Shown piece after piece: positions 1,746 to 4,591 of a DNA stretch of 4,591 bases. Under the pieces are notes generated by a model. That model did no database searches. It was given only the letters and a program-made list of their open reading frames with translations, and was not told the origin of the DNA. How positions within the stretch are numbered: the stretch's first letter is position 1; every line of letters starts with the position of its first letter. The translations under genes were made by a program, and so were the position numbers. Origin of the DNA: a virus (Duplodnaviria; Heunggongvirae; Uroviricota; Caudoviricetes); the IMG/VR virus record IMGVR_UViG_2579778535_000001, positions 1 through 4,591 of that record. One strand, written 5' to 3'.

Positions 1746-2104
1746 GCGTTCTCCAGTTCGGTGATTTTTATTCCAAGCCTTCCGCCTGGTACTTTCACGC
1801 CACGAATTACGCGGATGTCATCGAATTGCTCGTCGTCTTCCGCAAATCCGGCGTGGATAAGGGAGTCGAGTAAACCTTTCAGGATGTTGTCGAGGTCGCG
1901 GCGGCGGGAGTCTGGAACGTCTGCGATGACTTTGATGCGGAGTCGTGATTTGGTGAAAATGTCTAACTTAAGTTGGCGGATTATTTGCTGTACATCTTTT
2001 CGGTATTTCTGGCCTTTATCGCTGATGTAGTATTGGCTTCCCCGTCTTCGCCAGTAGGTATTCAGCGACGGTGGGTACGGAAGTGTGAATCTGTATTCTG
2101 CCAT
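1742..2104 (-). CDS. rusA: RusA-family Holliday junction resolvase (120 aa)
   Basis: 120 aa with LPYPPSLNTYW, RRRDLDN and GGRLGIKITE motifs characteristic of RusA endonucleases, including the acidic residues of the RusA catalytic motif. Position equivalent to rusA in DLP12-like prophages. Confidence 0.9.
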   Translation of the reverse strand: MAEYRFTLPYPPSLNTYWRRRGSQYYISDKGQKYRKDVQQIIRQLKLDIFTKSRLRIKVIADVPDSRRRDLDNILKGLLDSLIHAGFAEDDEQFDDIRVIRGVKVPGGRLGIKITELENA

Positions 2105-2629
2105 TTATCCTCTCCCATGATTATGGTGATACCCCAATCGTGATTCCGCCAATTTTCTGGCATTAACGGCTAGAGATATGTCATCGTATAATCCAAGAAA
2201 TATCTTTTTATTATCACTGTTTATATATGCTCCCCACTTTTTATTCTTCTTATAGTAGGCAACACCCATTACTCCAGAGCGATTATTAATAGGCTTTTTT
2301 CTGTTCCTTGAGTTCTGTTTATCATCTACAACGCGCAAATTGCATATTCTGTTATCGCTTTTAATTCCATTTATGTGGTCAATTTCCCCATCAGGTTCGC
2401 TTCCATAAAAAGATATCCATGCGATTCTATGAGCTCGACAAACTTTTTTATTTACAGATATACGAACGTATCCCTTTTCATCTATAGAACCAGCAATCTT
2501 ACCGGCATATGTTGAATTCCAGCACTCTCTTACACTTTCTCTTCTTTTGTATATAAACAAACCTGTTTCGCTATTATATTCATACAATTCATTGATTTCT
2601 TTTTGTGTTGGATATCTTTTACCGTTCAT
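2105..2629 (-). CDS. HNH homing-endonuclease-like protein with C-terminal AP2-type DNA-binding domain (174 aa)
   Basis: Contains GYVRISVNKK...RAHRIAW...EIDHINGIKSDNRICNLRVV...QNSRNRK (HNH_3-type motif) followed by GVMGVAYYKKNKKWGAYIN...IFLGLYDD (AP2-like). Gene is markedly AT-rich by eye compared with its neighbours. Stop TAA is immediately followed by the rusA ATG; start overlaps the ybcO stop (ATGA). Confidence 0.9.
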   Translation of the reverse strand: MNGKRYPTQKEINELYEYNSETGLFIYKRRESVRECWNSTYAGKIAGSIDEKGYVRISVNKKVCRAHRIAWISFYGSEPDGEIDHINGIKSDNRICNLRVVDDKQNSRNRKKPINNRSGVMGVAYYKKNKKWGAYINSDNKKIFLGLYDDISLAVNARKLAESRLGYHHNHGRG

Positions 2630-2916
2630 GACTTAATCTTCCCCTCCTTCAGCAGTATCGCCTGCGTCCTGATCACGCCTTCGAGGTGGTAAAGTCTGGC
2701 GTCTTTGTTGTCGAGATTATGGGTGCGTCGGTCGATTTCATCGTGACACGCGCTACAAGCCCATGCGCCGATCAGGTCGTCAGGCTTCATTCCCGTTCCG
2801 CAAATTCCAGCCATCCGGTAATGTGCCAGAACTGTAGTTTCAGGGTTGCCATTGCATACGCCGTAAATACGTACCTGGCATTCTCTTCCGCGCGCTTCTT
2901 TGCGTAGGTTAGCCAT
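2626..2916 (-). CDS. ybcO: YbcO-like DUF1364 protein (96 aa), Cys-rich putative metal-binding protein
   Basis: MANLRKEARGRECQVRI..CNGNPET.VLAH.R..G.CGTG.KP.DL....ACSACHDEIDRRTH closely matches DLP12 YbcO as recalled. Good SD (GAGGGAAGG) upstream of the ATG. Confidence 0.85.
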   Translation of the reverse strand: MANLRKEARGRECQVRIYGVCNGNPETTVLAHYRMAGICGTGMKPDDLIGAWACSACHDEIDRRTHNLDNKDARLYHLEGVIRTQAILLKEGKIKS

Positions 2917-3121
2917 TTACCTTCCCTCGCAATTGAAGAATTGACTGAAGGTCTTTTTTAATAAATATGCGAGTGCGAATTGAGCAGTAGTTTTCCTTCA
3001 TTCTGGCGTAGTAATAGTCCTTTCTTTGCTTAAGTTTGTTGGCATCCGCTGTCATCCAGTCTTTTACAGCAAACTTAATTAGCCAGCGGTGGCAGAGATA
3101 CCATTTCAGGTAATCACTCAT
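2909..3121 (-). CDS. Hypothetical small basic protein (70 aa), AT-rich moron-like ORF of unknown function
   Basis: ORF with a strong SD (GAGGAAGAAG) upstream of its ATG. Start overlaps the ninF stop and its stop overlaps the ybcO start, so it is embedded in the translationally coupled operon. Trp/Lys/Tyr-rich; I recognise no family. Confidence 0.55.
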   Translation of the reverse strand: MSDYLKWYLCHRWLIKFAVKDWMTADANKLKQRKDYYYARMKENYCSIRTRIFIKKDLQSILQLRGKVNG

Positions 3122-3284
3122 CGTCTTCTTCCTCGTACATTGAGCTATTCGGATCGCTCATCAGTTCTGCGCAGCAATCGGAGCACACGTGAACTTCCAG
3201 CACATGCAGCTTCTGACCGCAGTTAGCGCACGTTAAAGCCCGCTCGACACTTTCTTGTTCGTAACTTCGATTTGGGTCAATCAC
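3114..3284 (-). CDS. ninF: NinF-like protein (56 aa) with CxxC...CC zinc-ribbon-like motif; probable GTG start
   Basis: C-terminal part of the 220-aa track ORF. Sequence [51 protein letters not shown] matches lambda NinF as recalled. GTG at 3284..3282 overlaps the ninE stop (GTGA) and has GAGGAAAA upstream. An in-frame ATG at 3308 is an alternative start but lacks an SD. Confidence 0.75.
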   Translation of the reverse strand: MIDPNRSYEQESVERALTCANCGQKLHVLEVHVCSDCCAELMSDPNSSMYEEEDDE

Positions 3285-3457
3285 CTTGTTTTCCTCATGC
3301 GGTTCCATTTGGCCTGTAACAGCCAGTAGACATAATCGAATGTCTTTACCTGGCTTTCTGTGGGGATTGGTTTCTTGCGGGATTTGGTGCGTTTGGTAGG
3401 AGTAAAAATCAGGTTGTCTAACGCTATTTGAGTAATACTTCGTCGCTGTCTCGCCAT
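3281..3457 (-). CDS. ninE: NinE-like protein (58 aa)
   Basis: Hand translation gives [58 protein letters not shown], resembling lambda NinE (MRRQRRSIT... basic C-terminus) as recalled. GGAGG SD 4 nt upstream of the ATG. Not in the ORF track because it is under 60 aa. Confidence 0.75.
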
Positions 3458-3479
3458 ACGTCCTCCGTTTCCTGCGGTA

Positions 3480-3701
3480 GTGGTAAAACTCCTGTTGGTG
3501 TTCTTTCACACCGGAGACACCATCGATTCCAGTAAGGCTGTCCTGGTCGAAAGCGATCGTCTTCCTTTCACCAGCGCGGAACGTCAGCGTCTGAAAGAGC
3601 TGGAACGTGAAAATCGTGAACTGCGCCGCAGTAACGATATCCTTCGCCAGGCTTCCGCTTATTTTGCGAAGGCGGAGTTCGACCGCCTCTGGAAAAAATG
3701 A
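3480..3701 (+). pseudogene. Remnant of IS3-family transposase orfA (5'-truncated); only the C-terminal leucine-zipper part is IS-derived
   Basis: C-terminal roughly 40 aa ([41 protein letters not shown]) match the C-terminus of IS629-like OrfA as recalled. The N-terminal roughly 30 aa have no HTH character and are encoded by phage-side sequence. Full-length orfA (about 108 aa) would have to start near 3375, inside ninE. Confidence 0.7.
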
Positions 3702-4591
3702 TGCCACTGCTGGATAAGCTGCGTGAGCAGTACGGGGTCGGACCGGTATGCAGCGAACTGCATATTGCCCCGTCAACGTATTACCATTGTCAGCAACAGC
3801 GACATCATCCGGATAAACGCAGTGCCCGTGCGCAGCACGACGACTGGCTGAAGAGAGAGATACAGCGCGTATACGATGAAAATCATCAGGTGTACGGTGT
3901 GCGTAAAGTCTGGCGTCAGTTGTTACGGGAAGGAATCAGGGTGGCCAGATGTACAGTGGCACGTCTCATGGCGGTTATGGGACTTGCCGGTGTTCTCCGG
4001 GGTAAAAAGGTCCGTACGACCATCAGCCGGAAAGCCGTTGCCGCAGGCGACCGCGTAAACCGTCAGTTCGTGGCAGAACGACCTGACCAGCTGTGGGTGG
4101 CTGATTTTACTTACGTCAGCACATGGCAGGGCTTCGTCTATGTGGCGTTTATCATTGATGTGTTTGCCGGATACATCGTGGGGTGGCGGGTCTCATCGTC
4201 TATGGAAACGACATTCGTGCTGGATGCGCTGGAGCAGGCGTTGTGGGCCCGTCGTCCGTCTGGCACCATCCATCACAGCGATAAAGGCTCTCAGTATGTG
4301 TCACTGGCCTATACGGAGCGACTAAAAGAAGCCGGATTACTGGCATCAACAGGGAGTACAGGCGACTCGTATGACAACGCGATGGCTGAGAGCATCAATG
4401 GTCTTTACAAAGCGGAGGTAATACACCGTAAGAGCTGGAAAAACCGTGCAGAAGTGGAACTGGCCACACTAACGTGGGTGGACTGGTATAACAATCGACG
4501 ATTGCTGGGAAGGCTGGGCCATACTCCTCCGGCAGAAGCAGAAAAAGCTTATTATGCTTCCATCGGAAACGATGATCTGGCAGCCTGAGTT
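3570..4591 (+). mobile_element. IS3-family insertion sequence (IS629-like), left end deleted; right end beyond the window
   Basis: orfA remnant plus intact orfB. No left inverted repeat or orfA 5' region is present. IS-like sequence begins about 3570-3580, directly next to phage ninE-upstream sequence. Window ends 3 nt after the orfB stop, so the right inverted repeat is not visible. Confidence 0.85.
3698..4588 (+). CDS. IS3-family transposase OrfB (DDE integrase-fold catalytic subunit, 296 aa), IS629/IS1203-like
   Basis: 296 aa with the DDE triad context WVADFTYV (D), HHSDKGSQY (D), [18 protein letters not shown] (E). ATG overlaps the orfA stop in the -1 frame, the standard IS3 arrangement. 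Strongly resembles IS629 OrfB as recalled. Confidence 0.95.

Follow-up and report, generated by a model that had tools for sequence, protein, structure and literature searches.

Between ybcO and rusA, in the nin region of a lambda-like E. coli prophage, lies a small gene for an HNH nuclease. How did it come to be there, and what might it do? The window studied here is the whole stretch of DNA that was analysed, 4,591 nucleotides in length. It covers the nin-to-lysis segment of the prophage, and every phage gene in it is on the minus strand. An earlier note on this DNA had read the gene as an intronless homing insertion. Our comparison of occupied and empty loci lends support to this reading, since it points to a precise 525-bp cassette in diverse flanks. 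We put the probability at about 0.7 that this is a free-standing gene for a homing endonuclease combining an HNH_3 (I-HmuI-like) domain with an AP2 domain, an enzyme that would cleave DNA and home, and that the gene is a selfish cassette at the ybcO-rusA junction of lambda-like and P22-like E. coli prophages.

Genetic context and composition of the HNH gene

The HNH open reading frame runs from 2105 to 2629 on the minus strand, starts with ATG and encodes a free-standing protein of 174 amino acids. The earlier note had the coordinates and length right and gave no strand. Upstream of the gene are ninE (3281-3457), ninF (about 3114-3290), a 70-aa gene of PHROG 3973 (2909-3121) and ybcO (2626-2916; DUF1364; Pfam YbcO E=1.8e-44; PHROG 131), all on the minus strand. 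The nuclease encoded by ybcO is a His-Me finger protein (PMC5714182). Downstream, on the same strand, follow rusA, which encodes a Holliday-junction resolvase (1742-2104; Pfam RusA E=2.4e-16), ninH (1557-1745), the antiterminator gene Q (937-1560), genes for tRNA-Asn (GTT) and tRNA-Thr (TGT) between Q and the holin gene (507-662; Rfam), and the holin gene itself (59-262). A tRNA-Thr and a tRNA-Asn are also found at the equivalent position in the comparison locus L003. Between 1742 and 2916 on the minus strand, YbcO, the HNH-AP2 protein and RusA are encoded by three consecutive nuclease genes that overlap or abut, with no intergenic gap.

The remainder of the window, from about 3470 to its end at 4591, is an IS3-family element on the plus strand that abuts ninE. 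It contains orfA (3480-3701), an ALIL frameshift pseudoknot (3656-3772; Rfam, 121 bits) and orfB with an rve domain (3698-4588), which extends to the end of the window. At about 3296-3460, homology with other prophages ceases. Because the element interrupts the homology, no complete E. coli genome covers at least 80% of the window. The Rfam scan of the window returned the two tRNAs and the IS3 pseudoknot only, and none in or near the HNH gene.

The HNH gene is coupled to its neighbours on both sides. On the plus strand, TCAT at 2626-2629 corresponds to a coding-strand ATGA in which the ybcO stop overlaps the HNH start, and CATTTA at 2102-2107 places the HNH stop codon TAA directly against the rusA ATG. 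This bears out the stop/start coupling (ATGA upstream, TAAATG downstream) that the earlier note had described. Four-base overlaps are also present at rusA/ninH and ninH/Q, and coupling of this sort is therefore usual in the operon. The base composition sets the gene apart: its GC content is 0.349 and its GC3 0.286, compared with 0.50-0.53 and about 0.55 for ybcO, rusA, ninH and Q. It has AGA or AGG at 10 and ATA at nine of its 174 codons. The comparison of GC and codon usage thus confirms a strong AT-richness that had previously been judged by eye. The observed features of the gene are far beyond chance: it is foreign, AT-rich, intact and selectively maintained.

A scan for promoters and terminators found none on the coding strand of the HNH gene, and independent transcription is therefore unsupported. 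One promoter-like site is present on the antisense strand (2163-2192), a frequency within chance expectation. Since its own strand carries no promoter- or terminator-like site, the gene is assumed to be expressed with the nin operon in lytic growth.

Domain structure of the protein

The catalytic domain is of the HNH_3 type, an I-HmuI-like His-Me finger. It comprises residues 65-108 (2306-2437, minus strand) and is matched by Pfam with E=1e-16 and 60.7 bits, against a cut-off of 24.8. The protein also matches PHROG 99, 'HNH endonuclease', with E=4e-63. In a 43-sequence family alignment the residues H67, D84, H85, N87, D92, N93, N97, N106 and N109 are invariant, and the HNH motif is therefore intact. 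The earlier note had named this motif and had held that a protein without the catalytic His and Asn residues on proper alignment would argue against homing; the alignment places all of them.

The same note had called an AP2-like DNA-binding domain. This call stands on the family profile and the predicted fold but not on a Pfam search with the single sequence, which gives E=0.04 and 14.7 bits, under the cut-off of 33.3; the family profile and the predicted fold were therefore used. The domain spans residues about 116-165 (2135-2284, minus strand), with three strands followed by a helix. In the PDB, the 43-member family profile matches the AP2/ERF proteins WRI1 (3.3e-8) and TEM1 (4.4e-5) and I-HmuI (1u3e, 1.8e-6). 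The AlphaFold model (pLDDT 93) predicts strands at 123-148 and a helix at 151-165. A Foldseek search with this model ranks I-HmuI (1u3e) first, followed by the AP2 domains of TEM1, WRI1 and AtERF1, and AtERF1 superposes on the model with an rmsd of 1.3 Å over 50 residues. The AP2 domain is detectable only through the family profile or the fold.

Many homologues of the protein carry both Pfam HNH_3 and AP2, and no NCBIfam family matches it. Together, the profile and model matches place the protein among the HNH_3 or His-Me finger group 2 (I-HmuI-like) nucleases and within the HNH-AP2 homing endonuclease family. The HNH_3/I-HmuI group 2 His-Me finger enzymes are homing endonucleases, and their DNA recognition modules include AP2 (PMC5714182). 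HNH-AP2 is treated as a recognised homing endonuclease gene family in the passage of PMC10448857 that cites Magnani et al. (2004).

Two other assignments were considered and rejected. The packaging factors similar to HK97 gp74 are small HNH (PF01844 or HNH_5) genes located beside the terminase genes. The gene described here is in the nin region, remote from the terminase genes, and is of the HNH_3 type. A separate HNH/HNH_5 gene does adjoin the terminase in locus L010. An anti-phage defence system was the other candidate; in PADLOC, the HNH protein matches nothing beyond one generic model, 'homing endonuclease', and that weakly (E=1.6e-5), and its neighbours match none.

Anatomy of the insertion

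Aligning the locus with uninterrupted ybcO-rusA loci, a check that had been proposed together with the homing reading, defines the insertion site. The segment missing from the empty sites is 525 bp long, a precise cassette. The junctions were placed by hand from the sequences, as the MAFFT alignment put the gap wrongly. The empty site reads ...AAGATTAAGTC ATGAACG AATATCAGTTTGTGCTTCC... and gives a RusA N-terminus of MNEYQFVL. On the left of the occupied site, ...AAGTC ATGAACG is followed by GTAAAAG... of the HNH gene. On the right, the HNH gene ends with ...GGGAGAGGATAA, and ATGGCAG followed by AATACAGATTCACACTTCC... begins a RusA with the N-terminus MAEYRFTL. The empty sites align as far as window position 2623, with identity up to 100%.

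The left junction, ATGAACG (2623-2629, minus strand), is the rusA start in the empty sites and the HNH start in the window, and the TGA within it is the ybcO stop. Direct reading also locates the translation signals. A Shine-Dalgarno sequence, AAGGAGGGG (2641-2649, minus strand), lies within the 3' end of ybcO; it is found upstream of rusA in empty loci as well, where it would serve rusA, and here it would serve the HNH gene. For rusA, a purine-rich Shine-Dalgarno-like motif, GGGAGAGG (2109-2116, minus strand), is located in the last HNH codons, 4 nt before the ATG, and is identical in all 17 additional occupied loci. The rusA 5' end that follows (2065-2104, minus strand) starts with ATGGCAG and is recoded, with nine fixed differences within 20 nt between occupied and empty sites. 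The cassette thus appears to re-use the former Shine-Dalgarno sequence and start of rusA, and to supply rusA with replacements for both, the Shine-Dalgarno-like motif and the new start, together with recoded first codons. The earlier note had put the gene exactly between ybcO and rusA. It is placed between them, but the word 'exactly' does not hold, as the insert appropriates the Shine-Dalgarno sequence and the ATGAACG of rusA. We predict that the recoded patch is an immunity or target patch.

Occupied and empty loci

The junctions of 17 occupied and 12 empty loci were compared. In ybcO there are no fixed differences between the two groups, and the divergence between occupied and empty loci equals the diversity within groups. 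All nine fixed differences are located at +4 to +19 past the insert, and beyond about +20 the divergence again equals the within-group diversity.

The window, E. coli chromosomes and IMG/VR prophages together gave a larger set of 34 occupied loci. In all 34 the two junctions are the same, and in each the HNH reading frame is full length with all catalytic residues. The HNH gene (525 nt) has 15 haplotypes and a pi of 0.0069, and the first 27 nt of rusA have a single haplotype (pi 0). The flanks are four to six times more variable than this nearly invariant block, with 25 haplotypes and a pi of 0.040 in ybcO (287 nt) and 28 haplotypes and a pi of 0.025 in nt 28-363 of rusA (336 nt), and they match empty-site alleles. 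Two ybcO haplotypes from occupied loci can be as much as 24 of 287 nt apart, yet several such haplotypes are 0-4 nt from one of the 12 sampled empty alleles. The prophage backbones around the block also vary in replication genes and in the types of Q and terminase. Within the HNH gene, 10 polymorphic codons are synonymous and six non-synonymous.

One pair of loci, L039 (occupied) and L032 (empty), is near-isogenic across about 3.7 kb. To the left of the junction there are no mismatches over 1920 nt. On the right side, mismatches are found only at +4, 5, 6, 7, 10, 11, 12, 13, 19, 25 and 32, and past +32 there are none for about 1730 nt. The two loci differ by the insert and 11 substitutions; the differing unit thus comprises 525 bp and no more than 33 further nt. 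The HNH gene is a stand-alone reading frame that lies in neither an intron nor an intein. Its site is fixed, and among homologous genomes some have this site occupied and others have it empty.

The recoded rusA stretch of 20-33 nt always accompanies the HNH gene and cannot recombine away from the insert. Because the patch is too diverged from the rusA of empty sites to recombine off the insert, its perfect linkage is no proof of selection for immunity, nor is it in itself a sign of break repair. In E. coli FDAARGOS_944 (L003, 2278-2640), rusA directly follows an antirepressor (Ant) gene, and ybcO is missing. The 5' end of this rusA, MNEYRFTL (...TACAGATTCACGCTTCC), resembles the HNH-linked patch, and the HNH gene is absent from this locus. 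A rusA lineage of the L003 type may be the source of the patch, which may simply be an older allele.

Distribution and relatives

Of 5426 complete E. coli genomes, 33 carry the 525-base gene, in one chromosomal copy each and always beside ybcO. These copies are 98.5-99.2% identical to the window gene, and all are at one ybcO-rusA junction. The 3' end of ybcO and the 5' end of rusA, both of the window type, are found in about 956 complete E. coli genomes, and about 920 of these are empty. With 33 carriers against about 956 genomes, ~3.5% of the junctions are occupied. The earlier note had held that a gene carried universally at this position, with a base composition similar to that of its surroundings, would not be a homing insertion; the gene is found in a small minority of equivalent loci and its GC content is foreign. 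Of the 33 cassette-bearing genomes, NZ_CP054407.1 (E. coli KCJ3K291) alone has the rusA 5' region matched at a second place.

In a large protein collection, the exact HNH protein is found in 1444 blocks and on more than 620 contigs. The exact window RusA protein is found in 1495 blocks and adjoins the HNH gene in 10 of 10 places among the matches listed. The exact YbcO protein is found in 21,933 blocks; in 10 of 10 places among the matches listed, rusA comes directly next, as at an empty site.

Outside this clade the relatives are distant. Among 5.8 billion proteins, the nearest full-length ones beyond the clade are below about 50% identity, and none lies between about 55% and 98% identity except a decayed copy from Symbiopectobacterium. 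IMG/VR contains 17 contigs at 99% identity or more, with the next at 52% or less. A nucleotide search of 50,697 phage records gave a 50-nt match only, and a close copy is therefore absent from the sequenced phages. With tblastn, relatives turn up in 3541 phage records, a single genome often having several, and are annotated as homing endonucleases; the best of them are about 45% identical, are located in virulent phages and are annotated as HNH homing endonucleases. Among species-representative genomes, one per species, the sole match is 41% identical and comes from a Kiritimatiellae metagenome-assembled genome.

The decayed copy is on a contig of Symbiopectobacterium sp. (L036, 143-1055). There, a ybcO with 82% amino acid identity is followed by an HNH orthologue, with the ATGA overlap kept. 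The orthologue is broken: residues 1-64 and 61-119 are in different frames, about 75% identical, and are separated by about 170 extra bases. The ybcO-HNH junction is therefore present in a second genus.

Other nuclease genes in the nin/Q region

Three further free-standing HNH_3(-AP2) genes are found in E. coli prophages that carry the window gene. They are located before ninB (L007, 3181-3699), after Q (L017, 3940-4431) and between ninF and orf70 (L025, 924-1430). They encode 163-172 residues, have GC contents of 0.36-0.40, and are 39-43% identical to the window protein and to each other. This level of identity and the different sites make them separate lineages, presumably with different targets, and their presence at three other junctions indicates that such insertions are common in the nin region. 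Two other nuclease insertions were observed in this part of the genome. One, in L031 (3180-3749), encodes a 189-aa HNH_3/zf-His_Me protein and lies between a gene for a 131-aa RusA and ninH. The other, in L004 (628-1149), encodes a 173-aa NUMOD4-domain protein and lies between Q and the holin gene.

A proposed homing mechanism

We propose the following mechanism. In lytic growth or on induction, transcription of the nin operon would include the HNH gene. Through its AP2 domain and N-terminal sheet, the protein would bring the HNH active site to an uninterrupted ybcO-rusA junction, in the DNA of a co-infecting or co-resident related phage, and the enzyme would nick or cut it there. The predicted target is this junction, roughly AAGATTAAGTCATGAACGAATATCAGTTTGTGCTTCC. 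Phage or host recombination would repair the break from a cassette-bearing copy, so that the HNH gene and the adjacent recoded rusA codons are copied in. The cassette-bearing allele would itself be immune, with its site split by the insert and changed at 9 of the next 20 bases. The nuclease activity and a break-driven, super-Mendelian inheritance are what we infer from the sequence signature.

Two features of related enzymes bear on the details. The I-HmuI-type enzymes nick one strand rather than cut both, and the repair route is therefore uncertain. The cleavage sites of free-standing homing endonucleases are sometimes far from the gene (PMC2988022), and the ybcO-rusA junction may therefore not be the target.

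Alternative explanations

Lambda-like phages recombine heavily, and normal homologous exchange in the flanking ybcO and rusA could move a neutral cassette and leave the same diversity pattern; an occupancy of about 3.5% shows no obvious drive. Both points weigh against homing. In one alternative, the gene is a passive accessory gene (moron), spread by such recombination, and the nuclease is a weapon against competing related phages or prophages without the cassette, or against other invading DNA. The earlier note had raised a role of this kind, the cleavage of competing phage or host DNA, and the data are compatible with it. It would act in marker exclusion or interference competition and would not drive its own copying. 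The flanks are indeed highly recombinogenic and mosaic, the HNH protein is under purifying selection, and homing endonucleases act in phage-phage competition (PMC11620839), including marker exclusion in T-even phages (PMC2988022). One of the 33 carriers has another rusA of the family, compared with about 10% of genomes overall; in so small a sample this is a non-significant hint of incompatibility. However, the very short tract in the near-isogenic pair fits a break-initiated conversion better than a crossover in long flanks, and the defence-system models match only as the weak generic 'homing endonuclease' mentioned above. We regard this alternative as unlikely, with a modest chance of being right. 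Weapon and homing are not mutually exclusive, and the weapon is therefore more an added function than a true alternative.

In a speculative form of this idea, for which the odds are also low, the target could be the rusA translation-initiation region of rival lambda-like phages. Cutting there would copy the cassette and handicap competitors at the same time. The setting could be a co-infection, or an induction in hosts with multiple prophages, and the phage's own genome could be shielded by the cassette-borne rusA start, first codons and ribosome-binding site. If this is true, the cassette and the paralogous HNH-AP2 genes would together turn the nin region of temperate coliphages into an arena in which prophages compete by means of nucleases.

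The gene could also encode a domesticated nuclease that works with YbcO, RusA and NinB of the nin region, for example on replication or recombination intermediates, and that is immobile and kept for the benefit of the phage. Its position between two other nuclease genes, with translational coupling, would fit such a role, as would the intact reading frame with more synonymous than non-synonymous change and the orthologue, though decayed, at the equivalent ybcO junction in another genus. Against it, the composition is foreign and unadjusted to the host, the Symbiopectobacterium copy has decayed, and the diversity of the HNH gene, far below that of the flanks, indicates a recent spread rather than a long residence. 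About 96% of the loci with an equivalent ybcO and rusA lack the HNH gene, which makes a domesticated role improbable.

Least probable is an inactive homing endonuclease remnant that merely hitch-hikes. In its favour, decay is the expected fate of a homing endonuclease gene once fixed, one relative has plainly decayed, and the gene has a few rare non-synonymous variants, among them G43C at a position that hardly varies. Against it, the reading frame is intact and conserved, with 34 of 34 copies full length and complete in catalytic residues, the exact protein on more than 620 contigs and 10 synonymous against six non-synonymous changes.

Research on homing endonuclease genes has centred on virulent phages, among them T4, T5-like phages and ICP1. 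As a probable homing insertion, the present locus offers, in temperate lambda-like prophages, a clean natural pair of sites, one occupied and one empty. Its mobile unit has precise bounds (525 bp plus a recoded stretch of at most 33 nt) and an explicit candidate target, and E. coli and lambda-like phages are a tractable system that is easily crossed. The cassette also illustrates how such an element may limit its cost, as the translation signals of the downstream gene are re-used and then replaced. Still, a gene of this kind is to be expected in so large a family, and the general picture is unchanged.

Comparison with known systems

The closest structural relative is I-HmuI of Bacillus phage SPO1 (PDB 1U3E). 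It shares the HNH_3 His-Me finger with the D-H general-base motif and the Asn metal ligands, and in both proteins an N-terminal sheet precedes the HNH domain; both are group 2 His-Me finger enzymes (PMC5714182). The two proteins are about 22% identical. I-HmuI differs in being encoded in a group I intron and in having a helical C-terminal DNA-binding part, where the window protein has an AP2 domain.

The order of the domains, HNH at the N-terminus and AP2 at the C-terminus, is shared with HNH-AP2 genes of phages, cyanobacteria and ciliates, as described in the part of PMC10448857 that refers to Magnani et al. (2004). Vibriophage ICP1 has members of the HNH-AP2 family, its 'IPA-HNH' genes, and these are small free-standing phage genes like the window gene. 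The known HNH-AP2 proteins are at most about 50% identical to the window protein and have been described mostly from virulent phages. In contrast, the lineage in the window resides in temperate lambda-like prophages at a defined junction, and its AP2 domain is below the Pfam threshold.

The genetic behaviour is best compared with that of SegF, SegG and MobE of T-even phages, which are likewise free-standing, located between conserved genes and present or absent among related phages. Their enzymes belong to other classes: the Seg proteins are GIY-YIG enzymes, the Mob proteins are of another HNH subgroup, and their cleavage sites can be hundreds of bases away from the gene. Homing in the T-even phages has been demonstrated experimentally, whereas that of the window gene is predicted. 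The T-even free-standing endonucleases spread by break repair and co-convert adjacent markers (PMC2988022, PMC2790892). The window cassette with its recoded rusA patch looks like a possible co-converted unit of this kind. We base the homing reading on several features that fit the T-even genes: presence or absence at one site, a foreign composition, a recent cassette of low diversity in old and diverse flanks, a very short tract in the near-isogenic pair, and an altered sequence beside the insert.
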